DNA of 64,000 nt from Escherichia coli (GTDB lineage: Bacteria > Pseudomonadota > Gammaproteobacteria > Enterobacterales > Enterobacteriaceae), in the NCBI RefSeq assembly GCF_003334765.1, contig NZ_QOWT01000023.1. The stretch is one strand, 5' to 3'. The position numbers and the translations under genes were made by a program. The notes under the pieces were generated by a model. The model was not told the DNA's origin. It searched no databases and was given only the letters and a program-made list of their open reading frames with translations. Shown one piece after another: positions 42,409-59,516 of the stretch (position 1 is its first letter; every line of letters begins with the position of its first letter).

Positions 42409-42496
42409 GTTCACTGCCGTACAGGCAGCTTAGAAATTCACAGGTAACATACTCCACCCGCCCACCATGTTCACTGCCGTACAGACAGATAAAATG
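42409..42496 (+). CRISPR. orphan type I-F CRISPR mini-array (2 repeats, 1 spacer), no cas genes in window
   Basis: Repeat 1 is GTTCACTGCCGTACAGGCAGCTTAGAAA (42409-42436), the canonical I-F repeat. The 32-nt spacer is TTCACAGGTAACATACTCCACCCGCCCACCAT (42437-42468). Repeat 2 is GTTCACTGCCGTACAGACAGATAAAATG (42469-42496), degenerate in its 3' half. An AT-rich leader-like stretch lies upstream. Confidence 0.85.
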
Positions 42497-42539: not shown

Positions 42540-42553
42540 TGGCGGTGAGGGGG
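42540..42553 (-). other. 14-nt 3'-terminal fragment of tRNA-Ser(GGA) serW (att-type core/duplication); no tRNA body present
   Basis: TGGCGGTGAGGGGG is the reverse complement of ...CCCCCTCACCGCCA, the acceptor/T-arm 3' end of serW as I recall it. The sequence diverges immediately after it (ACCGCCTGAAATAAATC). Confidence 0.6.
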
Positions 42554-42713: not shown

Positions 42714-43931
42714 ATGGCAGTTTTGACGGATACTAAAGCAAGGCATATCAAACCTGATGACAAACCATTGCCCCATGGGGGAATTACAGGACTGACTCTT
42801 CATCCTTCTTCAGTAAAAGGGCGGGGTAAATGGGTTTTTCGTTATGTAAGTCCGGTGACACAAAAAAGGCGTAATGCTGGATTGGGAACTTATCCTGAGG
42901 TCAGTATTGCTGAAGCTGCACGTGCTGCCCGGATAATGCGAGAGCAACTTGCTGCAGGTGATGACCCACTGGAGATTAAAAAGGCTGAAGCTGAAAAAGT
43001 TGTTATCCCAACATTTGCCGATGCAGCCAGGCGTGTACATGCTGAATTGTCACCGGGATGGGAAAATCCAAAGCATGTCAGGCAGTGGTTATCGACGCTT
43101 GAAAATTACGCGTTTCCTCAACTGGGAGCAAAAACGCTGGATTCGATTACGGCTGCGGACGTGGCAGAAACACTGCGTCCAGTCTGGTTAACCTTGTCAG
43201 AAACGGCAAGCCGGGTTAAACAGCGCATTCATGTTGTTATGCAGTGGGGATGGGCGCACGGTTTTTGTGTGGCAAACCCTGTTGATGTGGTTGGCCATTT
43301 GCTTCCTCAGCAGACAAGAGGACGTGATGAACACCAACCCGCAATGCCCTGGAGGCAGTTACCGCTTTTTGTGGCGACCAGTGTGTATACAGATGAACCT
43401 TATAATGTTACCCGGGCACTGTTATTAATGGTGATACTTACAGCAACCCGCTCGGGCGAAGCCAGGGGAATGCGCTGGGCTGAAATTGATTTTCATAAGC
43501 GGATATGGACTATACCCGCAGAAAGAATGAAAGCCAGGATACAGCATCGTGTTCCTTTATCCCGGCAGGCCATTCACATTCTGGAAAATATACGTGGTTT
43601 GCATGATGAACTAGTGTTTCCTTCTCCCAGAAAGCAGCAGATCCTTTCAGATATGGTGTTGACGAGTTTTCTGCGTAAAAAGAAAGCCATCAGTGATATA
43701 CCGGGGCGAGTTGCCACGGCACATGGTTTTCGCTCAACATTCAGGGACTGGTGTAGTGAACAGGGGTATTCGCGGGATCTGGCGGAAAGGGCGCTCGCTC
43801 ATACGCTGAAAAATAAGGTTGAGGCGGCATATCATCGTACTGATCTACTGGAGCAGCGTGTACCGATGATGCAGGCATGGGCGGATTATGTGATGTCTCA
43901 ACTTGCTAAAAACACTAAGGAATTCGCTTAG
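42714..43931 (+). CDS. P4-family tyrosine integrase (DUF4102 arm-binding N-terminus)
   Basis: 405-aa ORF. The N-terminus is MAVLTDTKARHIKPDDKPLPHGGITGLTLHPSSVKGRGKWVFRY. Catalytic residues are in context: ATRSGEARGMRW (R), HGFRSTFRDW (HxxR), LAHTLKNKVEAAYHRTD (H...Y). Confidence 0.92.
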   Translation: MAVLTDTKARHIKPDDKPLPHGGITGLTLHPSSVKGRGKWVFRYVSPVTQKRRNAGLGTYPEVSIAEAARAARIMREQLAAGDDPLEIKKAEAEKVVIPTFADAARRVHAELSPGWENPKHVRQWLSTLENYAFPQLGAKTLDSITAADVAETLRPVWLTLSETASRVKQRIHVVMQWGWAHGFCVANPVDVVGHLLPQQTRGRDEHQPAMPWRQLPLFVATSVYTDEPYNVTRALLLMVILTATRSGEARGMRWAEIDFHKRIWTIPAERMKARIQHRVPLSRQAIHILENIRGLHDELVFPSPRKQQILSDMVLTSFLRKKKAISDIPGRVATAHGFRSTFRDWCSEQGYSRDLAERALAHTLKNKVEAAYHRTDLLEQRVPMMQAWADYVMSQLAKNTKEFA

Positions 43932-44100: not shown

Positions 44101-45630
44101 CTATAGTCTGTTTCGGTGATACTTCAGTATGTTTTGATGATCACAAATGAAAACTCCGGCATCGAATGCAGGAATATTTAGTTTTTTTGCCAGTTCGGAT
44201 GGTGTAATCGTGTTTCCTATATAAACAACCAGGTTATCATCAATCCTTATTTTCCTTTGTTCCGCCAGTATGTCAAGTGCTTCATCCAGAACACATTTTT
44301 TCCTGAGAGCATATGGGGCATATTGTAAAATATAACTTTTCTGGAATATGTAACCTGCTGTTGTGATAATTCTTTTCTGAAGCCATTTATCAAGTTTCTC
44401 AGCCGGGGATATTTCCCGAAGGGATTCAAGTTTATATATAAGATGCTTGAAATAAAATTCAATGAGATAAATGGCGCTATTAGTACTTTCCAGCGTTATT
44501 ACTGTCGAGTCTGGATCTTTCTCCAGTTCCAGAAGTGCTGCTATCCTGACAACCTGCTCTCTTTTTCTGACAATAATGTCTTCAAAAGTACCCATATGAG
44601 GATTCTGTCTGACAGTATCCATATTTTCTTTGTGAAAGCGCTCCAGTGCGCGGGATGCTGCATTTGATAATGTCATGCAGATGCGCTCTTTACTTTTTGC
44701 ACGTCTTTCTCTGGATGCTCTCAGAGAGTCTCTGATCTGACTGCCAAAACTTTTCTTACGAAAACAGCTTGCACATTGTTGCGTCACAACAGGAATGGCA
44801 GTATGCGGTTCTGTCGTCATTATTTTAATTGCTCCGGGTTCGCAAAATAGCAACCGGGCCAGAAAGCCATTGCCCCGGATCTGATCGCCAGTGAGAGTAA
44901 AAAACTTATTAAATATTACCGGTTGAGTCAGTATAAGTATAGTGAGACGGACATCATTCAGCCGGAATCCGGGTCTGGATGCTCGTTCAACGTTGACGGG
45001 TTGCCCACTCCATAATGTGTTGTACAGTGCCGATTTGCGTTCGAAACGCTTATCCAGAATAGTACCTCCTTCGTCAGACAGCAACAGAAGAGAGGGGGAC
45101 TGGCTGAGTTTCAAAGCTATCCCTTCTGGTGTCGCGTCATTAACGATGAGAACCTGTTGTGTGGGAGGTACGGGTTTATTTGCTATACACTTTTCAAGTG
45201 CTGCTCGTGCAGCAGCAGCATTTTCCGGGGATCTTTCCATTTCCTTTTTATATCTCCGCTCCAGTATTTTTTTATCTGTTGTCCACATCTCCATCATTCG
45301 GTCATAGTTTTTCTTATCGTCGATATATGCCTGATGTAGTTCTTCTTCTGTTTCATGAACAGGAGCGATTAATTTTGCACAGGCAGAGGTTTTTCCACTG
45401 CCTGATGCTGATGAAAGACACATAAATATCTGAAGGCTGGTACGCTGTCCTCCGGAAAGTTCAACTTCATGCGTATCCTGGACTGAGGCAGCCTTGACCG
45501 TCAGCATAACAGACAGCAGTATTTCACGGCTTATTCCCGTTTCTTCATGCATTTCATTAAGTAATGCCTGGCTCCTGTCAGGCAGTTTAGTTATGTCAAG
45601 TTCAGGGAGTGATAGTTTTGTCGTCATCAT
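44101..45630 (-). CDS. YfjI-like DUF3987 protein (putative P-loop helicase/replication protein)
   Basis: 509-aa ORF with Walker A-like SSASGSGKTS and Walker B-like LLLLSDEGG. It sits downstream of alpA and overlaps it, as in CP4-57 alpA-yfjI. Confidence 0.65.
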   Translation of the reverse strand: MMTTKLSLPELDITKLPDRSQALLNEMHEETGISREILLSVMLTVKAASVQDTHEVELSGGQRTSLQIFMCLSSASGSGKTSACAKLIAPVHETEEELHQAYIDDKKNYDRMMEMWTTDKKILERRYKKEMERSPENAAAARAALEKCIANKPVPPTQQVLIVNDATPEGIALKLSQSPSLLLLSDEGGTILDKRFERKSALYNTLWSGQPVNVERASRPGFRLNDVRLTILILTQPVIFNKFFTLTGDQIRGNGFLARLLFCEPGAIKIMTTEPHTAIPVVTQQCASCFRKKSFGSQIRDSLRASRERRAKSKERICMTLSNAASRALERFHKENMDTVRQNPHMGTFEDIIVRKREQVVRIAALLELEKDPDSTVITLESTNSAIYLIEFYFKHLIYKLESLREISPAEKLDKWLQKRIITTAGYIFQKSYILQYAPYALRKKCVLDEALDILAEQRKIRIDDNLVVYIGNTITPSELAKKLNIPAFDAGVFICDHQNILKYHRNRL

Positions 45631-45889
45631 TAAGTTCCTTTTGTTTGTTTTCAGGTTCAGACCAGGCTGGTGCCGTATGTAACGTCAGCCACTCATCGAT
45701 GGCAGATGCCCGCCAGCCAACGGATGCACTTCCAAGCCTTATCGGTTTGGGAAAGGTAGGGTCGTGGTATTTCGAGGCCGGATTTATTTTCACGTAAATC
45801 GTGGACCTGGATATACCCAGCAGCCGGGTAAGTTCAGCCATACGCAGGATGCGTGAAGGTGTGTCAAGCTGTCCGGTTTGATTTGACAT
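45602..45889 (-). CDS. alpA: AlpA-family (MerR-type HTH) excision/transcription regulator
   Basis: ILRMAELTRLLGISRSTIYVKINPASKYHDPTFPKPIRLGSASVGWRASAIDEWL is the AlpA/Phage_AlpA signature. The start is chosen at the ATG preceded by GGAGA (M7 of the ORF). The 3' end overlaps the next gene by 29 bp. Confidence 0.85.
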   Translation of the reverse strand: MSNQTGQLDTPSRILRMAELTRLLGISRSTIYVKINPASKYHDPTFPKPIRLGSASVGWRASAIDEWLTLHTAPAWSEPENKQKELNDDDKTITP

Positions 45890-45962
45890 ATTGTTCTCCA
45901 TATGCATTGCACGTTGTGGTATCAGTTTGATAGCTTAAGGTCGGAATGTCCCCTGCGATAAA

Positions 45963-47825
45963 ATGCAAACCAACCGGAGAGCACAGCATATGCGCACATT
46001 TACAAATCTGTTGTATGATATTTGTACTGTTCTGGGGTTGTTCAGGGAAGGCGAGAACCCGGCACACAAGCGGAAGAGCACTAATTTCGAAATGCATCAA
46101 AAATTCTGGGATCAACGTTACAATGCGATCAGTCGTATTATTGATGCTGAAGGGGTGTATAGTCAGGAGCAACGGCGGATCATATATGCCCGGTATGAAC
46201 ATTTTTATTACATGATGAATTCTTATCCAGTTCATTCCACACTAAAATCTGAATTCCTTCGCAGCTATTGTCTGCGCACTTTTGGGGTTATTTTTCTTGT
46301 TGTAGATATTTATAATACATACAGACCAGAGAATGACTCTGCTTTTTATTATCATATTTATAATTTTTTACAGAAGTCGTATTGTCCTTGTCTTGATCAC
46401 TCTGATACAGAAAGCGATGAAGCTGCTGTTAAACGTTATCTTCGGGAATATCTGGCAGAACTGGGATTCAACAAGGAAGATTTTCATGAAAATGGAAAGT
46501 TGTATGCTCTGGGGAAATATACAGGAACTATTCGGAGGGATAACGGGAAAAGCAAGAGTCTGATGAAACAATATATCATGTCTATCAAAAATGAATATAA
46601 AAAGGATTATCGGGAGAAGAAACTGGATAAGGATGAACTGGAGAAATTACTCAGGAATATTGATAAATTCTATAATGCATTTTATTCATTAAGTGTCTTA
46701 CTTGATATACAACGAAAGACGAAGATACTTCAAAGCCTTGCATATTATCTCAGAGTGTTGGTGAGAAAGGGGCTCTGGACTCATGGTTTATATGGTTACG
46801 CTGAGCAATATCTTTATGACTTTACCAGCTTGGATACAACGCCTTATGCAAAAAAATTACTGGAAATGTTTTATAAGTTTGAAAACAGTGCAGAAGGGAC
46901 ATTGGCTCGTTATAATGTATCACTTGATGATAAATCTCAGGAATATATTGCCCGTCTGAAAGATCTTGTATTTAATATTAATGAGAAGAATGGTTGTGAT
47001 GACGCATATCTGAAAATGATTATAAGTCATTTTGGGCAGTTGCAGAATGAGGCTGTTCATGTGACCAGCTGCTACGGAACACTTGCGGTGTACATTTGTC
47101 TGATAAGGAAAAATAAAATTAATGATGTGCTGCATCATTATGATGACATGGAAAGAAAAGGATTGTTTGCTGAATTACCTTCAGGATATATCAGGGGGGC
47201 ATTATCGTTGCTTCGGACAGCACTGGAGGTTAAAGTAAATAGAAAAAATATAAAGTATGGCTCGTTGTTTTATTGGCTTGACCATGTAAAAGCTCATCAG
47301 GATGCATTTATTGAATCAATACCACTTATTGATCCTGTATATAAGGAGGGTGAAATACAGTATGATGCGAACAATTTTACCCTGATGCGTGTTATTAAGA
47401 TGTATAATTGTATGCTTGAAAAGATCAGTACGAAACCATATATAGCTCCCCCATATATTACAGGTTTGCTTGATGACGTAGAGAAGGTGCTGGATAAGAT
47501 AAATATTCTGATAGATAAAGAGTATGTTTATGATGGTAAGACACTGGCTGAAGTCATTATAGAGAACAAAGTATTATCCAGTCGCGAGCGTAAAGATACT
47601 ATGATAGGGCTTTTCACAGGCAGTAAGAAATATACTTTACTGCAATGTGTTGAGAAGCTTGGTGTATTAGTTCACTACGTGAAATCACCGGTCGATGAAA
47701 TTAAAAATGTGATGATGTTGTATGGCGATAAGGCCGAAAACAGGAACAGACGCAGAATGATATATGATGCGTTAACCATTATTTGTGAGGATGATAACAG
47801 GGCTAAACACCCTGATCTGTCGTGA
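45963..47825 (+). CDS. hypothetical protein, AT-rich orphan (620 aa; likely start at 45990 preceded by GGAG)
   Basis: Long uninterrupted ORF in very AT-rich DNA, divergent from alpA. It is rich in K/Y/N/E/L and probably all-helical. I recognise no catalytic motif. Confidence 0.7.
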   Translation: MQTNRRAQHMRTFTNLLYDICTVLGLFREGENPAHKRKSTNFEMHQKFWDQRYNAISRIIDAEGVYSQEQRRIIYARYEHFYYMMNSYPVHSTLKSEFLRSYCLRTFGVIFLVVDIYNTYRPENDSAFYYHIYNFLQKSYCPCLDHSDTESDEAAVKRYLREYLAELGFNKEDFHENGKLYALGKYTGTIRRDNGKSKSLMKQYIMSIKNEYKKDYREKKLDKDELEKLLRNIDKFYNAFYSLSVLLDIQRKTKILQSLAYYLRVLVRKGLWTHGLYGYAEQYLYDFTSLDTTPYAKKLLEMFYKFENSAEGTLARYNVSLDDKSQEYIARLKDLVFNINEKNGCDDAYLKMIISHFGQLQNEAVHVTSCYGTLAVYICLIRKNKINDVLHHYDDMERKGLFAELPSGYIRGALSLLRTALEVKVNRKNIKYGSLFYWLDHVKAHQDAFIESIPLIDPVYKEGEIQYDANNFTLMRVIKMYNCMLEKISTKPYIAPPYITGLLDDVEKVLDKINILIDKEYVYDGKTLAEVIIENKVLSSRERKDTMIGLFTGSKKYTLLQCVEKLGVLVHYVKSPVDEIKNVMMLYGDKAENRNRRRMIYDALTIICEDDNRAKHPDLS

Positions 47826-47861
47826 ACTCATCTGAGTGTGTTTTGAGTCAATAATCTTTAT

Positions 47862-47908
47862 ATCCCCCTGCTAATTTTGCTAACCATTAGCAAAATTAGC
47901 AGGGGGAT
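47862..47908. other. perfect 21-bp-stem hairpin 3' of the 620-aa ORF
   Basis: ATCCCCCTGCTAATTTTGCTA-ACCAT-TAGCAAAATTAGCAGGGGGAT. No U-tract follows on the plus strand. Confidence 0.7.
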
Positions 47909-48184
47909 TATCTATGTCTGGCAAGAGAAAATTCTATAATAGTATGATTTCTTTGTTTATTTTGTTTTTCAATTAGAATGGTGTGTTTTTGTGATCTATG
48001 TCTAATTGTTTTGTATTCTTAGCGCCATCCCATTCATGGGCAGATGTACATACCGCCCCTATTAGATTGATGGGTTGCATGTTCATTGTATCTGTAAAAT
48101 ATGCCAGTTTTGACATTAATACATAATCTGTAATTCGGTGTAAGCTCTTGTCTGGTGAATTATGTTGCGTATTCCGCTCTATTC

Positions 48185-48247
48185 GATCACGGATTGGGCC
48201 AAATCATGATCGATTCGAATGCCAAACTGCGATCGATTCAGATGCCA
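48185..48247 (+). repeat. three direct iteron-like repeats at 23-bp phasing, each starting with GATC
   Basis: GATCACGGATTGGGCCA (48185), GATCGATTCGAATGCCA (48208) and GATCGATTCAGATGCCA (48231). Confidence 0.7.
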
Positions 48248-49200
48248 TTTTGCATTATGTTAGTGGCTTATTCTTCTTGTTCTTTTTTACAGGTTATGTA
48301 AGTGTGATTATCCTGATTACTGGTCACTCATTATATACTGAGTCGACAAAACAAATGAGTATTAACTGAAGTTTTTATACAGTGATCATCTGTCTGGTTA
48401 GGTTAGTTAGTTCTGGGAGAATCACATTTATTTCATATACCATGAATAATTAAGGTTAATTAGTATTATTAGTTGGAGTTATGGTATTGTGTGTCTGTGC
48501 CGTATTGTTTGTATATTTGTTGTATAACTTATCTCTTTACGTGGTAATGTCACTCCTCTTTATGCTAAGTATTCTGTATGTGTGTAATGCATATATCTCC
48601 ATACACTACGCAGTGAAGCATATGGGGGAAGCTGTATGGTGAATTATGTGTGTAATGTTGTCCTGTACGTACTTAACACTGGTTACGTATCGGAACACTA
48701 TTAGAGCGTGTTATGACTCCGTTACAGTTTATAGGTATAGGTAAATATGATCTTTTCTGTATGGAACAATCTTCTTATGGTGTGTGGGTATGTTCTGTAT
48801 ACCATTATTCTTTTATGCTAATGATTAAATACCCGTGGTCTCTCTCGGCTTTACTTAATGGTTCGACAATATTAATAGCGATGTTGCCTGTAGCTAGCCG
48901 ATACTGAGTTTTGTGAATGTCAGATTACTTCCTGTAAAGAATTTAGTGGTGCTTCCTGAAACTCAATTCTATGAGGTGTGTTTTTCCATTGTAATTCGTA
49001 CTGGTTCTCAGTTTAAGAGAGTCTCACTGTATTCTGAAGTATTACCTCATCACAGTAATGCGGTAATACAAAACAGTTTTATCAGGTTGTCTGTGCTGCT
49101 GGTTTACTTCGTTTATTAATGCCGTGGTACGGCGTTTCTCTACTCTCAGTATTTACGTAAGTCTCTCTTCCTGTGAGTTTTATAAAGTAAGGACTATAAA

Positions 49201-49764
49201 ATGTATAATGCCAATCCCAATTACAAAATGGATTTCATGATTCTGAAAGACGTGAATGAACACATGGATGGTATGTTTCAACGTTTTTCTAAACTGTTAC
49301 CTTTCAGAATTGATTTTGCTTACAGGAAAGACACGCCCAGTTTCGGTCATTCCTGTAAGCACAGTATGTGTATGGAAATATACCGTTTACTTTGCGAAAC
49401 CCAGACGATGTTGGCGGGATATTACTGGGTAATGGAATATACACCAGACAAAGGGCTTCATATTCATTTTGTCGGCTACCTGGATGGGCAACGTCACAAG
49501 AACTCTTATCAGATATCCAGGCAACTGGGAGATATCTGGAGGCGGATCACGGAAGGGGAGGGTTACTTTCACCTTTGCCGGGCTAAAGACAAATACCCGG
49601 TGCGTATCGATCACGTGATGCACTATAGTGATAAGTCCGCGGTAGACAACTTACGTTACGCCCTTAGCTATCTGGCTAAACAGGATCAGAAAGAACACGG
49701 TATTATTCTGGGCCGTAGCAGGCTTCCCGAAAAAAGCAACCGGGGCCGACCACGACATAACTGA
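49201..49764 (+). CDS. YfjJ/YagK-type (inovirus Gp2-like) protein with HUH-type motif
   Basis: 187-aa ORF. It shares the family pattern of K-12 YfjJ as I recall it: FRIDFAY (RVDLHF), YYWVMEYTPDKGLHIHFVGYLDG (YIWVREF...HYHMILLLN), and LSYLAKQDQK (ASYLAKEKTK). HIH forms an HUH triad. Confidence 0.7.
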   Translation: MYNANPNYKMDFMILKDVNEHMDGMFQRFSKLLPFRIDFAYRKDTPSFGHSCKHSMCMEIYRLLCETQTMLAGYYWVMEYTPDKGLHIHFVGYLDGQRHKNSYQISRQLGDIWRRITEGEGYFHLCRAKDKYPVRIDHVMHYSDKSAVDNLRYALSYLAKQDQKEHGIILGRSRLPEKSNRGRPRHN

Positions 49765-49840: not shown

Positions 49841-52279
49841 GTGGGGCGCTTTGTCATCAGTGTAGGGGACCCGAATTTCTGCCGTGGTGCCTCAGTGGAT
49901 CGGATACAGGTAACGAATATGGTTCATAAATCTGACAGTGATGAATTAGCTGCATTGAGGGCAGAAAATGCCCGTCTGGTCTCATTACTTGAAGCTCATG
50001 GGATTGAATGGCGACGTAAACCGCCGATCTCTGTGCAGCGCGTTTCTGTATTATCCACCAATGAGAAGGTTGCATTATTTCGTCGGTTGTTTCGCGGGCG
50101 TGATGATGTATGGGCACTTAGATGGGAAAGTAAAACCAGCGGCAAATCAGGGTACTCTCCTGCCTGCGCTAACGAATGGCAGGCGAGAATATGCGGTAAG
50201 CCCCGGATAAAATGTGGGGACTGCGCTCACCGTCAGTTGATTCCTGTATCTGATCTCGTCATCTACTACCATCTGGCAGGTACCCATACTGCCGGGATGT
50301 ATCCGTTGCTGGAAGATGATTCCTGTTATTTTCTGGCTGTTGATTTTGATGAAGCTGAATGGCAGAAGGATGCATCCGCATTCATGCGATCCTGTGATGA
50401 GCTGGGTGTACCCGCTGCGCTGGAAATATCCCGTTCACGTCAGGGAGCGCATGTCTGGATATTTTTTGCTTCACGAGTTTCGGCCCGCGAAGCTCGCCGT
50501 CTGGGGACTGCTATTATTAGTTATACGTGTAATCGAACTCGACAGCTGCGATTGGGTTCTTATGACCGATTATTTCCTAATCAGGATACGATGCCAAAAG
50601 GGGGATTTGGTAATCTCATAGCATTACCTCTGCAAAAAAGACCGCGTGAATCGGGGGGAAGTGTTTTTGTTGATATGAATTTCCAGCCTTATTCTGATCA
50701 ATGGGCTTTTCTTGCATCGGTGATCCCGATGAATGTGCAGAATATTGAACCGACGATATTACGGGCTACAGGAAGTATCCATCCTCTGGATGTGAACTTT
50801 ATCAACGAAGAAGACCTGGGTACGCCATGGGAAGGGAAAAAATCATCAGGAAACAGACTGAATATTTCTATTGCAGAACCGCTGAAAATCACGCTGGCAA
50901 ACCAGATCTATTTCGAAAAAGCGCAATTACCTCAGGTGCTGATTAACCGACTTATTCGGCTGGCAGCATTTCCGAACCCTGAGTTTTATAAGGCTCAGGC
51001 AATGCGTATGTCAGTCTGGAATAAGCCCCGTGTTATAGGTTGTGCGGAGAATTACCCGCAACACATTGCGTTGCCCCAGGGATGTCTGGACAGCGTATTA
51101 TCTTTCCTTAGGGACAACAATATTGCTGCAGAATTAATCGATAAACGATTTGTCGGGACGGAATGTAATGCCGTTTTTATGGGAAACCTCAGAGCGGAGC
51201 AGGAAGAGGCCGTTTCGGCATTACTCCGTTATGACACTGGTGTGCTTTGTGCGCCAACGGCTTTTGGTAAGACAGTTACCGCAGCGGCAGTGATTGCCAG
51301 ACGGAAAGTGAATACACTGATACTGGTACACCGGACTGAATTGCTGAAGCAGTGGCAGGAGCGTCTCGAGGTGTTTCTGCAGGTTGGTGACAATATTGGT
51401 ATTATCGGGGGAGGTAAACATAAACCCTGTGGCAATATTGATATTGCGGTGGTGCAGTCCATATCCAGACACGGAGAAGTTGAACCTCTGGTCAGGAATT
51501 ATGGGCAAATCATTGTGGATGAGTGCCATCATATTGGCGCGGTTTCATTTTCTGCGATTCTGAAGGAAACGAATGCCAGATATCTGCTTGGCCTGACGGC
51601 AACACCAATCCGACGGGATGGTCTGCATCCCATTATTTTTATGTACTGTGGTGCCATTCGCCATACAGCGGTCCGCCCGAAGGAAAGCCCACATAATCTG
51701 GAGGTACTGACCCGTTCCCGTTTTACATCTGGTCATTTACCATCGGATGCGAGAATCCAGGATATTTTCAGAGAAATTGCTCTGGATCATGACAGAACGG
51801 TGGCGATAGCTGAAGAAGCCATGAAAGCTTTCGGGCAGGGGCGAAAAGTTCTGGTACTGACTGAACGTACAGATCATCTGGATGAGATAGCATCAGTGAT
51901 GAATTCACTGAAATTGTCCCCCTTTATTCTCCATGGACGACTATCGAAAAAAAAGCGTGCGATGCTGATATCCGGGCTGAATGCTCTTCCTCCTGATTCT
52001 CCCCGTATTTTGTTGTCAACAGGCAGACTTATTGGTGAGGGATTTGACCACCCTCCGCTGGATACGCTGATTCTTGCCATGCCTGTGTCATGGAAAGGGA
52101 CATTACAGCAGTATGCGGGACGTCTACACAGAGAGCATACCGGTAAAAGCGATGTCAGGATCATTGATTTTGTGGATACCGCGTATCCAGTGCTGCTCAG
52201 AATGTGGGATAAACGCCAGCGGGGTTATAAGGCGATGGGGTACAGGATTGTGGCTGATGGTGAAGGGCTTTCATTTTAA
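49841..52279 (+). CDS. archaeo-eukaryotic primase (AEP/PrimPol)-like domain fused to DEAD/DEAH-box SF2 helicase (probable start ATG 49919)
   Basis: The N-terminal half has AEP-like motifs: FLAVDFDE (DxD, 50342-50350), SRQGAHVWIFF (sGxH), and YDRLFPNQD...GGFGNLIALPL. The C-terminal half has Walker A APTAFGKTV, motif II IIVDECHH (51514-51531), LGLTATP, and motif VI QYAGRLHR. Confidence 0.8.
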   Translation: MGRFVISVGDPNFCRGASVDRIQVTNMVHKSDSDELAALRAENARLVSLLEAHGIEWRRKPPISVQRVSVLSTNEKVALFRRLFRGRDDVWALRWESKTSGKSGYSPACANEWQARICGKPRIKCGDCAHRQLIPVSDLVIYYHLAGTHTAGMYPLLEDDSCYFLAVDFDEAEWQKDASAFMRSCDELGVPAALEISRSRQGAHVWIFFASRVSAREARRLGTAIISYTCNRTRQLRLGSYDRLFPNQDTMPKGGFGNLIALPLQKRPRESGGSVFVDMNFQPYSDQWAFLASVIPMNVQNIEPTILRATGSIHPLDVNFINEEDLGTPWEGKKSSGNRLNISIAEPLKITLANQIYFEKAQLPQVLINRLIRLAAFPNPEFYKAQAMRMSVWNKPRVIGCAENYPQHIALPQGCLDSVLSFLRDNNIAAELIDKRFVGTECNAVFMGNLRAEQEEAVSALLRYDTGVLCAPTAFGKTVTAAAVIARRKVNTLILVHRTELLKQWQERLEVFLQVGDNIGIIGGGKHKPCGNIDIAVVQSISRHGEVEPLVRNYGQIIVDECHHIGAVSFSAILKETNARYLLGLTATPIRRDGLHPIIFMYCGAIRHTAVRPKESPHNLEVLTRSRFTSGHLPSDARIQDIFREIALDHDRTVAIAEEAMKAFGQGRKVLVLTERTDHLDEIASVMNSLKLSPFILHGRLSKKKRAMLISGLNALPPDSPRILLSTGRLIGEGFDHPPLDTLILAMPVSWKGTLQQYAGRLHREHTGKSDVRIIDFVDTAYPVLLRMWDKRQRGYKAMGYRIVADGEGLSF

Positions 52280-52296: not shown

Positions 52297-52514
52297 TTAA
52301 ATAATTTGAGCTCCCCGGGTTGTTCGGGCAACAAAGAGTCCCAGTATACAGGCTTCAGGAATATGTTGTAGTATCAGGCTTTTCATCGCTTTAAAATGGC
52401 TACCGGCAGTAAGAACGTCATCAAAAATAACAATCCAGGGCCTGCATCCCTCCAGTAATTGTTCATTCAGTTGGTAGTTTGCCATAATCGCTTCTGGTGA
52501 GGGCCGGTTTGTTG
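52297..52514 (-). pseudogene. ComF-type phosphoribosyltransferase, C-terminal third only (5'-truncated by IS66-family end)
   Basis: The frame is open up to the IS terminus: ...PTNRPSPEAIMANYQLNEQLLEGCRPWIVIFDDVLTAGSHFKAMK... with the PRPP-binding loop VIFDDVLTAGSH. The roughly 150 N-terminal residues expected for this family are absent. Confidence 0.7.
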
Positions 52515-52551
52515 GTAAGCGTGCAGCAAGAACCGTATTGACGGGGATGTG

Positions 52552-52925
52552 TTATTCAGTCGGCAGTGCTACGCGCCAGGGGAGCAGTTCGCCGACCCGG
52601 TTTATCGGCCAGTCGGCTATGACGTCAAGGACATAGCGGAGGTAGCTTTCTGGCTCCACTCCGTTCAGTTTGCACGTCCCGATCAGGCTGTACAGCAGCG
52701 CTCCCCGCTCTCCTCCATGATCCGAACCGAAGAACAGGTAATTTTTGCGGCCCAGACTGACCATCCGCAGCGCATTCTCAGCTATGTTGTTATCAGCCTC
52801 GGCCCAGCCGTCGTCAGTATAGTAAGCCAGCGCTGGCCACTGGTTCAGTACGTACGTGAACGCTTTCGCCAGTTCTGAGTGTCGCGACAGGGTTTTCACC
52901 TTTTCACGTAGCCAGCCTTCCAGGG
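52552..52925 (-). pseudogene. IS66 TnpC (orf3) C-terminal fragment
   Basis: ...LEGWLREKVKTLSRHSELAKAFTYVLNQWPALAYYTDDGWAEADNNIAENALRMVSLGRKNYLFFGSDHGGERGA... Confidence 0.85.
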
Positions 52926-52928
52926 ATT

Positions 52929-53192
52929 TCAGTCGCCTTTGTCATCGCGGGCCGACGGCCAGGCGAAGCGGCCACGCTCCAGCCGTTTGGTCAGCAGACA
53001 CAGTCCATCGCCGGTAGACCAGAGGAGCTTTACCTGACTGCCATTACGCCCACGGAAGATAAAAACGTGACCTGACATCGGATCGTCTTTCAGCGTCGTC
53101 TGCACCTTTGCCGCCAGGCCGTTGAAGCCGTTTCTCATATCGGTGATGCCAGCGACGAGCCAGATCTTTGTCCCTGATGGTAATGGGATCAA
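52929..53192 (-). pseudogene. IS66 TnpB (orf2), C-terminally truncated
   Basis: MIPLPSGTKIWLVAGITDMRNGFNGLAAKVQTTLKDDPMSGHVFIFRGRNGSQVKLLWSTGDGLCLLTKRLERGRF..., 87 aa against about 115 expected. Confidence 0.8.
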
Positions 53193-53593
53193 CGTTTGAG
53201 CTCCCTTATCAGCAGGTTCAGGATATTTTCGCTGATGGTACCATTCAAGCGGAGTGAGCCATGCCGGAACGTCACTTCACAGCTGATATTGAGTGATTCA
53301 GGTGCCGCAGCAGCTACAGGTTGTGACCGGGAGGAGGTTGTAGGAACAACATCTTCGGTATCAAGTGTTATGGGGAGCAGCTCAGGCACGCTGTTTTCTG
53401 TTGTTGAAGGAGGGCGTAGTTTTCCTTCGCGCCAGTACTGGCACCACTTGAACAGCAGATTATCGTTGATCTCATGCTCACGAGCGAGTTGCGCTACGGA
53501 GATATCTGGTCGATGCGAGAGTTCAACCATTTTGATTTTGAACTCAACGGGATAATTAGGGCTTTTTTTACGCACTGTGGTTAATGATTTCAT
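53189..53593 (-). CDS. IS66 orf1 (TnpA, HTH)
   Basis: MKSLTTVRKKSPNYPVEFKIKMVELSHRPDISVAQLAREHEINDNLLFKWCQYWREGKL... It overlaps orf2 by 4 bp. Confidence 0.8.
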   Translation of the reverse strand: MKSLTTVRKKSPNYPVEFKIKMVELSHRPDISVAQLAREHEINDNLLFKWCQYWREGKLRPPSTTENSVPELLPITLDTEDVVPTTSSRSQPVAAAAPESLNISCEVTFRHGSLRLNGTISENILNLLIRELKR

Positions 53594-53616
53594 GGATAGT
53601 GTCCACCATATTGAAG

Positions 53617-55026
53617 TGCGCCCCAAAGGTTAGACACCAGACCAAAAACTGAGGATGCATGGAAAAGTTTTCATTGGAGTTCAAAAAGGTAGTATCAGAA
53701 AAGTACCTGGAGGGAGAGTTGAGTCTGAAATCTGTAGCAAGGATGTACGGTATCAGTCCCTGCACAGTAAGAAAATGGGCTTATGCCTATCGGGAACATG
53801 GGATAAGCATACTTACGGGTAAAAAAGGACGCTATTCTGCTGAGTTAAAACTCACAGTAGTAAAAGAAGTCGTGGATGACGGTTTTTCTGTTCGTGAAGT
53901 AACGGTAAAGCACGGAATACCAGCCTTTGGTACTGTATGCAACTGGCTTGAAAAATATAGAAAATATATAGCGAAGATGCTTTCATTCGAAAAAATAAAA
54001 ATAGTATTCCTGTGCCGGATAAAAGCGCCATTTCAGCACCACCACTACCAACATTAACCAAAGATGAGAGAGAAGAACTTGAACAACTCAGGGTCGAGAA
54101 TGCCTACTGAAAAAAGCTGAAAGCCTTGGTTCAGCAGAAAACATGCTCAACGTTCAGGAAAAAGTGAGCATTGTGAATGAACTAAGGCAGGAATGGTCAT
54201 TGTCCCGATTGTTAATTGTTTCCGGGCTTTCCGGAGTACATTTTACTATCATGTCAGACGGCTTGCTGCTCCTGACCGGTATCAGTCTGCCAGAGCGCTT
54301 GTGCTGAAAATTTATCACCAGCACAAAGGCCGCTATGGTTACAGACGCATCAGGCTGGCATGTCGTAACGCGGGGGTTTTACTTAATGGTAAAACCGTCA
54401 GAAAACTGATGAAGGAACTGGGTATTAGCAGCCTGATCCGCGTTAAAAAATACCGTTCATATAAAGGAGAACAAGGACGAATTTGCGATAATCTCCTGAA
54501 ACGCAATTTTGATGCAAAACGCCCTAACGAGAAGTGGGTTACAGATGTCACTGAATTTAAAGTCAATGGCAAGAAGCTGTATTTATCGCCCATCATGGAT
54601 CTTTATAATGGGGAAATAATTTCCTATAACCTCGCTACTCGTCCTCAACCTTCAATGGTGCAGACTATGCTTACGGATGCGCTGAAACAGCTGTCGAAAG
54701 ATGAACACCCCATACTGCACAGCGATCAAGGTTGGCAATATCAGATGTCCCGGTGGCAACGATGATTAAAGGATAGCGGTATAGTCCAGAGTATGTCTCG
54801 TCGGGGAAATTGTCTTGATAATGCAGCAATGGAAAGCTTTTTTAGTACTTTAAAATCAGAATGTTACTATCTAAATAAAAACAATAACTTACATCATCTA
54901 AAGCAAGATATAATTGATTACATTGAATACTACAATCACCATTGCATTAAAGAGAAACTCGATGGCATGAGTCCGGTTCAATATCGACTTAAACATTTTT
55001 CATAGGATGTCCAAGATTTGGGGCGC
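53617..55026 (+). mobile_element. degenerate IS3-family element (1410 bp) with terminal inverted repeats
   Basis: IRL is TGCGCCCCAAAGGTTAGAC (53617-) and IRR is GTCCAAGATTTGGGGCGCA (-55026), with TG...CA termini. The orfA HTH region (53659-) and the DDE orfB are broken into at least 3 pieces (54193-54765, 54793-55005) by stops and frameshifts, for example ENAY*KKLKAL. Confidence 0.8.
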
Positions 55027-55052
55027 AGATCATCAACTAGTGGACGCCTGTT

Positions 55053-55250
55053 ATGAAGCAAAAAACATTATCCGCAGAACCCCGCAGATCATTTTCAAAT
55101 AATTTTAAACTTCAAATGGTTAAACTGGCTTTGCAACCAGGAGCCTCTGTTGCCCGTATCGCCCGGGAACACGATATCAATGTTAACCTCCTGTTCAAAT
55201 GGCTCAGGCTCTGGCAGAACGAAGGGCGTGTTTCGCGGGGATCTGGCTGA
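55053..55250 (+). pseudogene. IS66-family orf1 N-terminal fragment (different family member)
   Basis: MKQKTLSAEPRRSFSNNFKLQMVKLALQPGASVARIAREHDINVNLLFKWLRLWQNEG. It is head-to-head with copy A orf1 and has no downstream orf2/orf3. Confidence 0.7.
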
Positions 55251-55544
55251 TAGCTGGGGTTGTGGGTGTGGTCTTCCTATTGATGAAAAAAACAAGCAAT
55301 TACTTGGCATATTATCTGTAACACTTTAAAACTGTTAAGAAGATCACAATTCATTATGTTTATTATTGTCTGGCCGGAGGGATATTTGTTAAAAAGTGCG
55401 CCGTGTGGTGAATCCCCCTGTGCGGTGGGGCGACTGGTGTACATAGCATTTATTATGTTATGAGCGAAGCCTACGCGGGTTCAGTGACACCGACTGAATT
55501 CACCGGGAGGCACCCGGCACCATGCAACAGACGCAAGTTAGGCT

Positions 55545-56296
55545 AAGCCTTATACCCCTGTAAGTTTTTTACAGGGGTTTTTTGTGCACAGAAAACCCCC
55601 AGCTAGGCTGGGGGTTCCGGAAAGCTTTCAGCTTTGAGCCAGTTATTAAAACCCCTTTTGATTTGTTAAAACACCTTGCGGTCTGGCAACTGCAAGAGTC
55701 AAACAAGAAATCAAAAGGGGTTCCAATGGGGAACGAAAAGAGCTTAGCGCACACCCGATGGAACTGTAAATATCACATAGTTTTTGCGCCAAAATACCGA
55801 AGACAGGTGTTCTACAGAGAGAAGCGTAGAGCAACAGGCAGTATTTTGAGAAAGCTGTGTGAGTGGAAAAGTGTACGGATTCTGGAAGCTGAATGCTGTG
55901 CAGATCATATCCATATGCTTGTGGAGATCCCGCCCAAAATGAGCGTATCCGGCTTTATGGGATATCTGAAAGGGAAAAGCAGTCTGATGCTTTACGAGCA
56001 GTTTGGTGATTTGAAATTCAAATACAGGAACAGGGCGTTCTGGTGCAGGGGGGACTACGTCGATACGGTGGATAAGAATACGGCGAAGATACAGGATTAC
56101 ATAAAGCACCAGCTTGAAGAGGATAAAATGGGAGAGCAGTTATCGATTCCCTATCCGGGCAGCCCGTTTACGGGCCGTAAGTAACGAAGTTGGATGCAAA
56201 TGTCAGATCGTGTGCGCCTGTTAGGGCGCGGCTGGTAAGAGAGTCTTATAGGCGCATTTGAAAAACCTCCGGCCATGCCGGAGGATATTTATTTAT
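55545..56296 (+). mobile_element. IS200-type (IS200/IS605 family) element; boundaries approximate
   Basis: There is a left-end terminator-like hairpin CCCCTGT-N9-ACAGGGG plus T6 (55555-55583), the tnpA gene, and a right-end hairpin CCTCCGGCCATGCCGGAGG (about 56267-56285). Confidence 0.75.
55726..56184 (+). CDS. tnpA: IS200 Y1 (HUH) transposase TnpA
   Basis: 152 aa from the internal ATG, MGNEKSLAHTRWNCKYHIVFAPKYRRQVFY...ADHIHMLVEIPPKMSVSGFMGYLKGKSS, with the HUH motif HIH and the catalytic Y region. Confidence 0.9.
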   Translation: MGNEKSLAHTRWNCKYHIVFAPKYRRQVFYREKRRATGSILRKLCEWKSVRILEAECCADHIHMLVEIPPKMSVSGFMGYLKGKSSLMLYEQFGDLKFKYRNRAFWCRGDYVDTVDKNTAKIQDYIKHQLEEDKMGEQLSIPYPGSPFTGRK

Positions 56297-56700
56297 GTGC
56301 GTCGGGCATGGTGCGTAGCGCCGTGACTGGCGATGTTCTTCAACTCTGGTGGCTGAAGAACGACTAAAAGATGAAAGTCCTTCACTCACCCGGTGAGGGG
56401 AAGTAATAGCGGAAGGCAAGGGGGCATCGCGAGGTGAAATCTGAAGGAAGTCGGATGCAAAATGTTGGCCTGACGAACAGGAAGCGGTTAAGGCGGCGCA
56501 GCGGAGTCAGGTGGTGTAAATCACCAAAGCCCGATACTCACACGGAACGCTGTGACGTACTACCGGCAGGCATAAGCAGGAAAGTCGCGCGAATTACCCC
56601 AGAAGATCTGCAACTCTGCCAGTGTGCTACCGTCCCTGTAACAGCCTGAAGTTGGCCAGGGTAATCAAATACCGGTGTGGTGATTAGGATACAGGGTTCA
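56297..56700 (+). mobile_element. group II intron 5' fragment (domain I; IIC-like), no RT ORF or domain V recognisable
   Basis: It starts with GTGCG. The string GTGCGTCGGGCATGGTGCG...GAAAGTCC...GAAGTAATAGCGGAAGGCAAGGGGGCATCGCGAGGTGAAATCTGAAGGAAGTCGGATGCAAA...CTGACGAACAGGAAGCGG parallels block by block the Oceanobacillus iheyensis IIC intron 5' region as I recall it. The 3' limit is uncertain. Confidence 0.55.
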
Positions 56701-57004
56701 GATGACATCATGGCGCAAGTCATTGAACCTACTAACGACGCCGGATATATGGTCGAAAAGCGCATCGAACAGTATTTGCATCACCCGTGGCGCCCATATA
56801 TGGTCAAGTAATATTGGCCACGGTTTTGCATCATCCATATGGTGTCAGTAGCGTGAGTATTGAGAAGATATCTGGTGAGTATGTCCATACAGTACGGGCA
56901 CGAGCCTTTAGCCGTTTGACTGTTTTGTTTGTACTCATGATCACTTTGGTGATGCCTCTAATTAGTTGAATCTGATGTATAATACGGGCTTTTGAGGTTA
57001 TCTC

Positions 57005-57277
57005 ATGGCCAGCGTTAATATTCATTGTCCCCGTTGTCAGTCAGCTCAGGTTTACCGCCACGGTCAGAGCCCTAAAGGCCATGACAGATTTCGCTGCCGT
57101 GACTGCCATCGTGTGTTTCAGCTCACTTATACTTATCAAGCACGTAAGCCGGGTATGAAAGAGCTGATCACTGAAATGGCCTTTAATGGCGCCGGGGTTC
57201 GCGATACCGCCAGGACACTGAAAATTGGTATTAACACCGTTATCCGGACTTTAAAAAACTCGCGCCAAAGCGAATAA
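57005..57277 (+). CDS. insA: IS1 InsA
   Basis: MASVNIHCPRCQSAQVYRHGQSPKGHDRFRCRDCHRVFQLTYTY..., with a zinc finger and HTH. Confidence 0.9.
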   Translation: MASVNIHCPRCQSAQVYRHGQSPKGHDRFRCRDCHRVFQLTYTYQARKPGMKELITEMAFNGAGVRDTARTLKIGINTVIRTLKNSRQSE

Positions 57278-57699
57278 CGTCTTCGCCTGTTGCCCATGCT
57301 GATGTAGCGCTTATCTGCGAACTTGATGAGCAATGGAGCTACGTTGGCAGTAAAGCCCGGCAGCACTGGCTCTGGTACGCGTACAACACCAAAACAGGCG
57401 GTGTACTGGCCTACACTTTTGGCCCCCGAACCGATGAAACGTGCCGGGAGCTACTGGCGCTGCTTACCCCCTTCAACATCGGCATGCTCACCAGCGACGA
57501 CTGGGGCAGCTATGGCTGGGTGGTGCCGAAGGATAAGCATCTGACCGGCAAAATATTCACCCAACGCATTGAGCGTAATAATCTGACGCTACGCACCCGT
57601 ATTAAGCGGTTGGCTCGTAAAACAATCTGCTTCTCACGCTCAGTTGAGATCCACGAAAAAGTGATCGGAGCGTTTATCGAAAAACACATGTTCTACTAA
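57241..57699 (+). CDS. insB: IS1 InsB' frame (expressed as InsAB' by -1 frameshift)
   Basis: The frame is open through ...KKLAPKRITSSPVAHADVALICELDEQWSYVGSKARQHWLWYAY...RIERNNLTLRTRIKRLARKTICFSRSVEIHEKVIGAFIEKHMFY. Confidence 0.85.
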   Translation, partial: YPDFKKLAPKRITSSPVAHADVALICELDEQWSYVGSKARQHWLWYAYNTKTGGVLAYTFGPRTDETCRELLALLTPFNIGMLTSDDWGSYGWVVPKDKHLTGKIFTQRIERNNLTLRTRIKRLARKTICFSRSVEIHEKVIGAFIEKHMFY

Positions 57700-57717
57700 T
57701 TGGAGGCACTACCTATC

Positions 57718-58597
57718 TTAAGTTAACATTACCCGCTGACGTCGATATTCTCGCGGAGAGCGATAACCCAACGCACTATGCGGATGCCATTCGTTATAAT
57801 AGCTCGAACGCCTCTGTAAGGTTCTTTGCTGCCGTTAACCCGTCTGGTTTGGGCATGATACTGATGTAGTCACGCTTTATCGTTTTCACGAAGCTCTCTG
57901 TTATGCCGTTACTCTCCGGACTCCGCACCGCCGTGTTCTTCGGTTCAAGTCCCAACATCCGGGCGAACTGGCGTGTTTCATTAGCCCGGTAGCATGAACC
58001 ATTATCCGTCAGCCACTCTACTGGAGACGCCGGAAGCTCGTTGCGGAAGCGGCGTTCCACCGCTCCCAGCATGACGTCCTGTACTGTTTCACTGTCGAAG
58101 CCGCCCGTAGTGACCGCCCAGTGCAGTGCCTCACGGTCACAGCAGTCCAGCGCGAACGTGACTCGCAGTTTTTCTCCGTTATCACAGCGGAACTCGAACC
58201 CGTCAGAGCACCATCGCTGATTGCTTTCTTTCACGGCCACTTTGCCAGTATGTGCCCGTTTCGATGGCGGTACAGCGGTTTTTCGCTCAAGCAACAGCGC
58301 ATTCTGGCGCATGATCCGGTAAACACGTTTGGCATTGATCGCAGGCATACCATCAAGTTCGGCCTGTCTGCGAAGCAGCGCCCATACCCGACGATAACCA
58401 TACGTGGGCAGCTCTCCGATAACATGGTATATACGGAGAAGCACATCCGTATCATCTGAGTGACGGCTGCGGCGACCATCTTTCCAGTCATCGGTTCGTC
58501 TGAGAATGACGTGCAACTGCGCACGCGACACCCGGAGACAACGGCTGACTAAGCTTACTCCCCATCCCCGGGCAATAAGGGCGCGTGCGCTATCCAC
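57718..58597 (-). pseudogene. insD: IS2 orfB (InsD) with 3'-proximal frameshift
   Basis: The DDE transposase frame ends early at ...NLTEAFELL* (57794). The conserved tail [18 protein letters not shown] is encoded just downstream in another frame. Confidence 0.75.
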
Positions 58598-58920
58598 TTT
58601 TTTGCACGCCCATATTCAACGGCTTCTTTAAGGATTTCATTTTCCATCGTTTTTTTGCCGAGCAGGCGCTGGAGTTCTTTAATCTGCTTCATGGCAGCAG
58701 CAAGTTCAGAAGCAGGAACGACCTGTTCTCCTGCGGCCACAGCAGTAAGACTTCCCTCCTGGTATTGCTTGCGCCAGAGAAATAACTGGCTGGCTGCCAC
58801 ACCGTGTTGCCGGGCAACAAGGGAGACCGTCATTCCCGGTTCAAAGCTCTGCTGAACAATAGCGATCTTTTCCTGTGTAGTACGCCGTCTGCGTTTCTCC
58901 GGTCCTAAGACATCAATCAT
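58555..58920 (-). CDS. insC: IS2 orfA (InsC)
   Basis: 121 aa from the internal [56 protein letters not shown]... Confidence 0.9.
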
Positions 58921-59516
58921 CTGTTCTCCAATGACTAGTCTAAAAACTAGTATTAAGACTATCACTTATTTAAGTGATATTGGTTGTCTGGAGATTCTGG
59001 GGGCTAGTCTACTCAGTGTGTGAATAATAAATTACACTTTGAAGTGAACGCCAGTCAGGACCATGTCGTATTTCCGGGTGGATGAGCATATATCAGAAAC
59101 TACAATAACTACAGATAACGGTTTTCAGTAATTCTGTCATAACTTGCTGGAATGTAATGTTTTTGTGACATGGTTCTTATTTTTATACACAGGCAGGTTT
59201 TGTCTGGATGGAATGGATAATGAACTCTTATCATTATAAGGCGGTAACCTCTTTTTTATGTGATTAACTTTCATTATTACCACTTCTGTTTATCGATTCA
59301 GCTCTGGAGATACAGAAAAATTCAGTGCAGGTGTATAAATCATCACCATGCGAAATACATAAAATATGTTAACGTTTGTTTTTCGCAGGAAAAATCTTAA
59401 GTGTGGACAGGTATTTCTGATGCCATTTAAAATAGATTCAGAGTGAGTGCCCAGCACTCACTCTTTCCGGATAGACAATACATTTTAATACCATGTAATT
59501 ATATAGCGGGAATTAT

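Follow-up and report, generated by a model that had tools for sequence, protein, structure and literature searches.

Stl proteins, the master repressors of the SaPI (Staphylococcus aureus pathogenicity island) phage satellites, possess an N-terminal helix-turn-helix (HTH). We describe here a gene from an Escherichia coli island that is placed in a similar way. It was found in a window of 64,000 nucleotides (the whole stretch of DNA that was analysed; contig NZ_QOWT01000023.1 of assembly GCF_003334765.1), and we refer to it simply as the ORF (open reading frame). Both stl and the ORF are divergent from the excision/replication operon of their island across a short control region, which in the case of the ORF spans 82-100 bp in the window; the divergent arrangement was seen in 11 locus types. 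Both are highly divergent between related islands and both encode largely helical proteins, in the case of the ORF by prediction. However, there is no sequence or significant fold similarity between the two, the HTH of Stl has no detectable counterpart in the ORF, and AlpA is present in the islands considered here and not in SaPIs.

Another comparable gene is yfjH of the K-12 element CP4-57. It is likewise divergent from an alpA-yfjI(DUF3987)-yfjJ operon, it lies beside that end of a tRNA/tmRNA-associated island which holds the integrase, and no function is known for it; a YfjH homologue occupies the same position in a further island (L026). YfjH has 318 aa as opposed to 611 aa of the ORF, and its spacer to alpA is 43 bp. 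Homology of the two proteins was rejected, since hhalign of the family profile with YfjH gave a probability of 0.1% and an E-value of 0.64, and we consider them unrelated. The tetratricopeptide repeat (TPR) sensors of the RRNPP group (NprR, Rap including RapI of ICEBs1, PlcR, AimR) can be aligned with about 150 of the 611 residues at 7% identity. They originate from Bacillota, whereas the ORF family comes from Enterobacterales, and Pfam gave no TPR match for the family; neither an HTH in any 600-aa member nor a small conserved ORF alongside that could be a cognate peptide gene was found. The ORF may resemble Stl or the Rap/Aim/NprR sensors in position and logic, by analogy and not by homology.

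Regarding the operon, the int-alpA-prim core is needed for excision and replication of PICMI satellites (PMC10803314), and tmRNA-associated, defence-carrying islands of Pseudomonas have an IntY-AlpA-Gp2-like core (PMC12595487). As far as the passages of the two papers at hand go, the PICMI/PICI-like and Pseudomonas elements have the same module as our island (tyrosine integrase, AlpA, DUF3987 "prim" and a Gp2/YfjJ-like Rep) with defence cargo nearby, and these passages name no divergent alpA partner of ~600 aa among the core genes. The island in the window differs from these elements in being large (more than 21 kb within the window) and in carrying a virulence gene for a serine protease autotransporter (SPATE). 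Literature on YfjH, on TOTE systems or on WP_001258871.1, the copy of the ORF in E. coli E2348/69, was searched and nothing relevant was found.

We suggest that the ORF is a backbone component of CP4-57-like islands of Enterobacterales, the fixed divergent partner of the alpA-DUF3987(-YfjJ) operon. With a probability of roughly 35%, its product is an island-encoded sensor or regulator of this operon. The family is uncharacterised, structurally isolated and unusually strict in its association with alpA. The central features are as follows.

45990-47825, + strand: the ORF, gene under study, predicted 611-aa soluble all-alpha protein of an uncharacterised family
45890-45989, no strand: divergent control region common to alpA and the ORF (from the sequence and an alignment of 8 intergenic regions)
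45602-45889, - strand: alpA, Phage_AlpA family, Xis/Vis-like winged HTH regulator, first gene of the operon (Pfam PF05930, E 1.6e-17; also called in E2348/69 by the Prokaryotic Genome Annotation Pipeline, PGAP)
44101-45630, - strand: DUF3987 (YfjI-type), the "prim" core gene of int-alpA-prim elements (Pfam PF13148, E 1.6e-62)

Position of the ORF beside alpA

In each of the 11 independent locus types that were read, those of relatives with 25% identity included, alpA-DUF3987 has a member of the ORF family as its divergent neighbour. The types are the window together with E2348/69, a second E. coli lineage with a 71% identical ORF (the 71% clade), L008/L011 (Edwardsiella hoshinae, along with related contigs), L007, L014, L017, L018, L019, L020, L023 and L024. 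In E2348/69 the module is found at another chromosomal site, beside phoH and next to the lifA/nleE/nleB island. The locus of the 71% lineage lies at clpA/serW, one context is a tmRNA-associated island from a metagenome, and L014, L017 and L024 represent AT-rich lineages. The spacer between alpA and the ORF is typically ~100 bp across the loci; in L019, an E. coli record with ycdU and pgaA beside the locus, the ORF is 1.1 kb from alpA. A YagK/YfjJ (inovirus Gp2-type) gene usually follows in these contexts. A scan of the genome collection with an alignment of 7 sequences gave two loci only.

Among complete E. coli genomes, the ORF is present in 233/5426 and alpA together with DUF3987 in 231/5426. 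Split by lineage, the respective counts are 75 vs 77 at an identity of at least 95% and 158 vs 154 in the diverged lineage. Recognisable defence genes occur beyond the ORF (type I restriction-modification (RM) with an SMC-like protein, type III RM with DUF4391/helicase, SLATT with GAP1/DO-GTPase, and the TOTE-type fusion of an archaeo-eukaryotic primase, AEP, to a helicase) and between int and yfjJ (CHAT, Abi_alpha/Abi_C, DUF4062). The invariant placement divergent from alpA and the nearly 1:1 linkage in E. coli imply that the ORF is, in these islands, not one of many swapped occupants of a hotspot and that it travels with the excision/replication module. The original prediction had put the gene in a cargo slot for stand-alone defence or abortive-infection genes. 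The gene does sit in a mobile element, where genetic conflict is to be expected, and its fast evolution in one pair of loci (see L014/L017 below) partly favours the earlier view, but the cargo slot itself is largely contradicted by the place beside alpA in every locus type, by the linkage to the module and by the position of defence cargo further out.

The ORF also diverges together with its neighbours. Across loci, the pairwise identity of ORF proteins correlates with that of AlpA (Spearman 0.84) and DUF3987 (0.70), and the ORF is always more diverged than either. Between the two E. coli lineages, amino acid identity amounts to 71% for the ORF, 84% for DUF3987 and 97% for the integrase.

The region between the divergent genes is 82-100 bp long, depending on the alpA start chosen, which agrees with the ~100-bp control region shared with alpA-DUF3987 that had been predicted. 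It harbors a conserved 35-bp element (45947-45981, TGTCCCCTGCGATAAAATGCAAACCAACCGGAGAG) composed of TGTCCCC, an A-rich -10-like box and a 5´ leader AAACCAACCGGAG with a Shine-Dalgarno sequence. This element is kept between loci whose proteins share only ~30% identity, and in 5 loci the motif AACCAACYRSAG is present once per locus, directly 5´ of the start. Its first half, the TGTCTGCGTAAAAAAA box, remains beside alpA in L019 though the ORF is distant there, suggesting that the element belongs to a shared bidirectional promoter region. A scan of the spacer for the sigma-70 consensus revealed no convincing promoter and no good -35 box; an activator-dependent promoter is therefore possible. The AlpA of Pseudomonas is a larger, Q-like antiterminator and has only its name in common with the Phage_AlpA/Vis-type proteins of ~70-95 aa. 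Its binding element, GGGACG (PMC9371919), matches the conserved box as read on the alpA strand (GGGGACA) in five of six positions, to which we attach no weight, and this assignment was set aside.

The gene and its protein

The list of open reading frames for the window contains an uninterrupted frame of 620 aa at 45963-47825 (+). It was taken to begin at 45963, and while the intact frame is indeed there, the start that is conserved lies at the second in-frame ATG, 45990 (MRTFTNLL). In alignments, all homologues, those of both E. coli lineages as well as distant ones, begin at this position, GGAG precedes it by 8-10 nt, and the start that PGAP assigned to the 99.6%-identical copy in E2348/69 (WP_001258871.1, "hypothetical protein") is its equivalent. 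The product is thus most likely a protein of 611 aa, and the upstream ATG at 45963 is probably not used.

GC content of the ORF is 36.8%, which is lower than that of clpA (52.7%), the window (49.6%), int (48.6%) and DUF3987 (42.5%), and the earlier remark that it is AT-richer than the core genome and its neighbours was accurate. At third codon positions the ORF and DUF3987 are the same (GC3 0.36 and 0.37, respectively); the extra AT sits in codon positions 1 and 2 and hence stems from the abundance of Lys, Asn, Ile, Tyr and Leu in the protein. Members of the family are AT-rich in every locus, with 27.6-39.3% GC, which is 4.6-12.6 points under the GC content of the respective locus. Two H-NS-like proteins are encoded between int and yfjJ of L020 (3363-4404), an island with one of the long forms of the family (P0107, see below), which deserves mention given this AT-richness.

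The frame is intact in relation to the 71%-identical E. coli lineage, with a single 4-codon indel, and the comparison of the two yields a nonsynonymous rate (dN) of 0.168, a synonymous rate (dS) of 1.00 and a dN/dS of 0.17. The neighbours have dN/dS values of 0.09 (int), 0.11 (alpA) and 0.23 (DUF3987). The ORF is a real gene under selection: neither frameshifted relatives nor a dN/dS near 1, the two signs that had been named as speaking against a coding frame, were observed.

A different mode of change is seen in the pair of L014 (10001-11960) and L017 (10001-12054). Their DNA is 92% identical from yfjJ through DUF3987 and alpA into the start of the ORF, with 92-93% in the flanks, and the identity reaches the first ~50-100 nt of the ORF (~97 nt in L014, 52 nt in L017). 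The body of the ORF cannot be aligned as DNA and the proteins are 39% identical. After the stop codon follows a 36-bp palindrome that is 100% identical in both loci, and the cargo beyond it differs. We read this as either a cassette-like replacement or an extreme diversification of the ORF. Purifying selection, rapid or allelic replacement and a variable middle part (described below) together have the look of specificity genes engaged in conflict, which would fit a sensor or regulator and would fit a defence protein too.

Neither the ORF protein nor any member of a 17-sequence family alignment matched anything in Pfam, NCBIfam, PADLOC, PHROGs or PDB sequences. In PADLOC-DB v2 (5027 models) the ORF protein found 0 families at E <= 1; as a control, the neighbouring TOTE AEP-helicase matched PrimPol at E 1e-143. 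The absence of a recognisable enzymatic or DNA-binding motif, as noted in the original prediction, is borne out by these profile searches, and the orphan status by the lack of homology to any housekeeping or structural family. HMMER on 1.84 billion representative proteins returned 47 sequences at E <= 1e-3, ~16 of them full-length with 20-32% identity. The relatives with a named source all belong to Enterobacterales and all are "hypothetical". Their genera, as obtained by a word-index protein search with E. coli left out, are Escherichia, Cronobacter, Klebsiella, Citrobacter, Enterobacter, Lelliottia, Leclercia, Yersinia, Pectobacterium, Pantoea, Erwinia and Edwardsiella. None of 50,697 phage records contains a relative. 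There were five matches in a plasmid collection, all in E. coli records, of which one that was inspected bears genes of the chromosome (pgaA, for example) and another has a length of 4.8 Mb.

The AlphaFold2 model built from the 17 diverse sequences consists of 28 helices and no strands, with a predicted local distance difference test score (pLDDT) of 85.5 and a predicted template modelling score (pTM) of 0.83. It was taken in place of a model based on a shallow E. coli-only alignment, which was unusable (pLDDT 42). The ORF protein has no transmembrane segment (maximum Kyte-Doolittle value 1.48), and a Foldseek search of the model against PDB and BFVD gave no significant match. The predicted protein is soluble, all-helical, ~600 residues in size and possibly TPR/solenoid-like. 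The family alignment contains ~40 well-conserved polar residues, among them the following.

N-terminal half: H36, Q37, D52, R62, E70, D106, H122, R182
C-terminal half: K415, Q437, N461, N462, R467, N473, K503

Residues 240-360 are the most variable, the N- and C-terminal parts being better conserved. A HEPN nuclease had been considered on account of VRKGLWTHG, a weak Rx5H motif. We rejected this candidate: the motif falls within a poorly conserved stretch, its R and H are not kept across the 17 aligned sequences and are absent from homologues of 20-39% identity, the columns conserved to 75% contain no R-x4-6-H pair, and there is no match to a HEPN profile of Pfam.

Two deep-branching members are considerably longer, P0113 (933 aa, L018 2938-5739) and P0107 (865 aa, L020 8001-10598). 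They are homologous to each other over the full length, have in common an N-terminal extension fused to the family domain, and both adjoin alpA. An HTH of the HTH_29/HTH_23 type was detected in the N-terminal fragment of P0113 (E 1e-7), with no HTH match in P0107, and both extensions resemble DDE/rve domains, though short of the threshold (E 0.05 and 0.2). The extension looks like the N-terminus of a domesticated transposase that became fused to the family domain. The long forms are a weak but consistent sign that this domain might work in a DNA-associated context.

The palindrome and the rest of the island

Downstream of the ORF the window contains three further features.

47862-47908, no strand: perfect palindrome; arms 47862-47883 and 47887-47908, 22 nt each, 100% complementary, 3-nt loop
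47909-49200, no strand: AT-rich non-coding tract with only short unconserved ORFs
49201-49764, + strand: Inovirus-Gp2/YagK-YfjJ-like gene, rolling-circle Rep-like (weak Pfam matches REP_ORF2-G2P, E 0.001, and YagK_YfjJ_C, E 0.006; PGAP "inovirus-type Gp2 protein")

A perfect 21-bp hairpin had been noticed after the ORF. It is real and stronger than it was described, with arms of 22 nt; folded as DNA it has -24.7 kcal/mol (z = -8.9 vs shuffles). Each arm contains two TGCTA pentamers 9 nt apart (TGCTAATTTTGCTA), and TGCTA-N4-TGCTA occurs in the window in the two arms only, with 0.08 occurrences expected by chance. In 9/11 locus types a long perfect palindrome (arms of 10-24 bp) is situated 16-135 nt after the ORF homologue. 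Its unit across loci is a pair of (C/T)TGCTA pentamers, 9-10 nt apart, in each arm, the pentamers being conserved and the spacers variable. TGCTA-N4-TGCTA is located downstream of the ORF in the loci where it was matched, with one extra copy in L007. L019 and L020 have a gene of the ORF family and no such palindrome.

The palindrome is not restricted to islands with the ORF. A scan of IMG/VR for the double TGCTA pattern gave 12 hits, 8 of them non-palindromic in the spacers. Three (L026/L028/L033) are exactly the L018 palindrome, positioned between alpA and DUF3987 of CP4-57-like islands without the ORF (L026 4351-4382). In L035, another island without the ORF, the palindrome (13081-13112) is found 138 nt upstream of alpA, and CP4-57 of K-12 has a degenerate copy in the alpA-yfjI spacer (L013 ~3909-3945). 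We therefore assign the palindrome to the alpA-yfjI-yfjJ module; it cannot require the ORF protein, and we rejected it as an ORF-specific terminator or binding site. An intrinsic (Rho-independent) terminator was rejected as well: the stem is present, but there is no T-run on the 3´ side (the tail reads ATTATCTATG), TGCTA is conserved, and elsewhere the palindrome is found upstream of or inside the alpA operon. As it lacks a U-tract and is constrained in sequence, a site bound by a protein (an origin, an operator or a transfer site) is more probable than a simple terminator, and we propose the palindrome as a candidate origin or operator of the module.

From the stop of the ORF to the Gp2-like gene extend 1375 bp (47826-49200) with 35.8% GC and no credible gene; the long non-coding tract that had been reported here is thus genuine. 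The last ~560 bp (48641-49200) form the leader 5´ of the Gp2/YagK-like gene and are found with 80-90% identity in ~2000/5426 complete E. coli genomes, where nothing is annotated. No Rfam family reached the gathering score in this leader; a regulatory region and an RNA are both conceivable. At 48198-48247, 2.2 copies of a 23-bp unit with GATC in it are arranged in tandem, inside a ~57-nt segment (48198-48257) that has matches at many sites of chromosomes and plasmids; the query as a whole matched up to 45 places per genome. The repeat may be a short dispersed repeat or an end of an insertion sequence (IS). The Gp2/YagK-YfjJ-like gene is downstream of DUF3987 in relatives and has moved here to the other side of the ORF. 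At the opposite side, alpA and DUF3987 overlap by 29 nt (45602-45630), suggesting translational coupling; in CP4-57-type islands the palindrome separates both genes.

At the integrase end of the island are located the following features.

42540-42553, - strand: displaced 14-nt 3´ end of the tRNA-Ser gene serW, island junction; K-12 identity stops at 42553
42714-43931, + strand: P4-type tyrosine integrase of the island (Pfam Arm-DNA-bind_3, Phage_int_M, Phage_integrase)

The window matches K-12 at 100% identity as far as 42553, a position 14 nt inside the 3´ end of serW, and the integrase adjoins the displaced serW fragment, which confirms serW as the island junction. ARAGORN found no intact tRNA in the window because the junction lies 14 nt into serW, the rest of which (with infA) is beyond the window. 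It follows that the island runs past 64000 and exceeds 21 kb. Between clpA and serW there are two repeats of type I-F CRISPR (clustered regularly interspaced short palindromic repeats), at 42409-42436 and ~42461-42488 (Rfam CRISPR-DR4, 50 bits). As this stretch is 100% identical to K-12, it represents a residual array of the core genome outside the island.

Beyond the Gp2-like gene, 49841-52279 encodes an intact TOTE-type protein of 812 aa, in which an AEP primase is joined to a ResIII/DEAD helicase (PADLOC PrimPol, E 1e-143). In E2348/69 its orthologue is frameshifted and IS-truncated, while the ORF is intact. That the ORF is part of a TOTE system was rejected, since the 71% clade, L007, L011, L014, L017, L018 and L024 have the ORF without TOTE. 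The region 52500-63608 contains IS3-, IS200- and IS1-type debris followed by the 1363-aa SPATE (59517-63608; Peptidase_S6 and autotransporter beta-domain), which makes the island a pathogenicity island. This gene is longer than the ORF, and the ORF is consequently not the longest of the island besides the helicase, as had been stated.

Possible functions of the ORF protein

We hypothesize that the ORF is expressed from a promoter overlapping that of alpA within the bidirectional region of 82-100 bp. Its protein would keep the alpA operon fixed in one state, most probably the off state, either by contacting another protein (AlpA, RNA polymerase or a protein of replication) or by means of a cryptic surface that binds DNA. 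Binding of a signal, for example a phage or host protein, to the variable central helical region would then release the control. That the ORF regulates at all, the direction of this regulation and the nature of the signal are inferred. A variable part at residues 240-360 between conserved ends is the pattern one would expect of a specificity or sensor region. Synteny, linkage in E. coli, co-divergence with AlpA and DUF3987, the conserved intergenic element, the pattern of evolutionary rates, the HTH of P0113 and the lack of any enzymatic, transmembrane or defence domain speak in favour of a sensor or regulator, and the ORF looks more like control machinery of the island itself than like an anti-phage gene that was swapped in.

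Several observations weigh against this proposal. All contexts were found via the ORF protein and hence tell where the family lives, not what alpA needs. The position divergent from alpA holds unrelated proteins in other islands, namely YfjH (K-12 CP4-57, L026) and an Xre-type HTH protein (L035), so the slot is not universally filled by the ORF family. Neither an HTH nor another DNA-binding domain was detected by Pfam in any of the 600-aa members, and the ~40 conserved polar residues could equally mark an active site.

These residues suit the idea of a stand-alone anti-phage or abortive-infection protein, in which a helical protein at the edge of a defence hotspot would sense a phage component and block the infection. 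We regard it as a somewhat less probable alternative. The ORF borders a variable region that in relatives holds type I/III RM, GAP1/DO-GTPase, SLATT and TOTE, it is AT-rich relative to the locus in every case, it evolves fast and was exchanged like a cassette between conserved flanks in L014/L017, and islands of the same class are known carriers of defence systems according to the passages at hand of PMC12595487 and PMC10803314. Yet cargo turns over, while the ORF family keeps its place and orientation by alpA down to 25% identity and approximately 1:1 in E. coli. In addition, none of the 5027 PADLOC models was matched, the HEPN-like motif is not conserved, and no nuclease, NTPase, protease, transmembrane or other effector domain was found in the ORF. 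Relatives are missing from the 50,697 phage records, and the five plasmid-collection matches are all from E. coli, the inspected one holding chromosomal genes.

The TGCTA palindrome offers a different explanation, namely that the ORF is an accessory factor for island replication, maintenance or transfer that acts on the palindrome (as an origin, a centromere-like site or an oriT-type transfer origin) together with DUF3987 and the Gp2/YfjJ-type Rep. The distance of 16-135 nt from the gene in 9/11 locus types, with pentamers kept and spacers variable, would agree with such a role, as would the AT-rich tract and the Rep-like gene that come after the palindrome in the window. In L014/L017 the palindrome is 100% conserved while the gene between it and alpA is not. 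We find this explanation improbable, for the palindrome exists without the ORF (L026/L028/L033, L035 and, in degenerate form, K-12 CP4-57), L019 and L020 have the gene without the palindrome, and the TGCTA core shows no variation in parallel with the strong divergence of the proteins. Slightly less probable still is a new all-helical enzyme acting on a small molecule or nucleic acid, for which the position in the island would be incidental: no enzyme family was matched by sequence or fold, and the conserved residues form no known catalytic motif. What weight is left after the sensor or regulator and these rivals belongs to something else.

A sensor or regulator of the alpA operon would be of interest because the quiescence of CP4-57-like islands and the triggers of their AlpA-dependent excision and replication are poorly understood, and because a large share of the defence and virulence cargo of Enterobacterales resides in such islands at tRNA/tmRNA genes. 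Facing alpA, evolving quickly and having a confidently predicted fold without relatives, the ORF family is a specific candidate for the control or sensor part that is still missing. The TGCTA palindrome, as a possible origin or operator, provides a second handle on the module. If the ORF proves to be a defence protein, it will represent a new single-gene system with a new fold. A broader proposal, which we put forward as speculative and rather unlikely, is that the family constitutes a new class of island sensors in Gram-negative bacteria, whose fold without relatives and diversifying centre would read proteins of phages or competitor elements and switch the AlpA-primase-Rep operon in the manner of SaPI Stl, with the palindrome as the companion cis element. 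The ORF is present in the well-studied pathogens enteropathogenic E. coli (EPEC) E2348/69 and O104:H4. If the broader proposal is true, then enterobacterial islands, including those of these two pathogens, would possess a functional counterpart of SaPI Stl.

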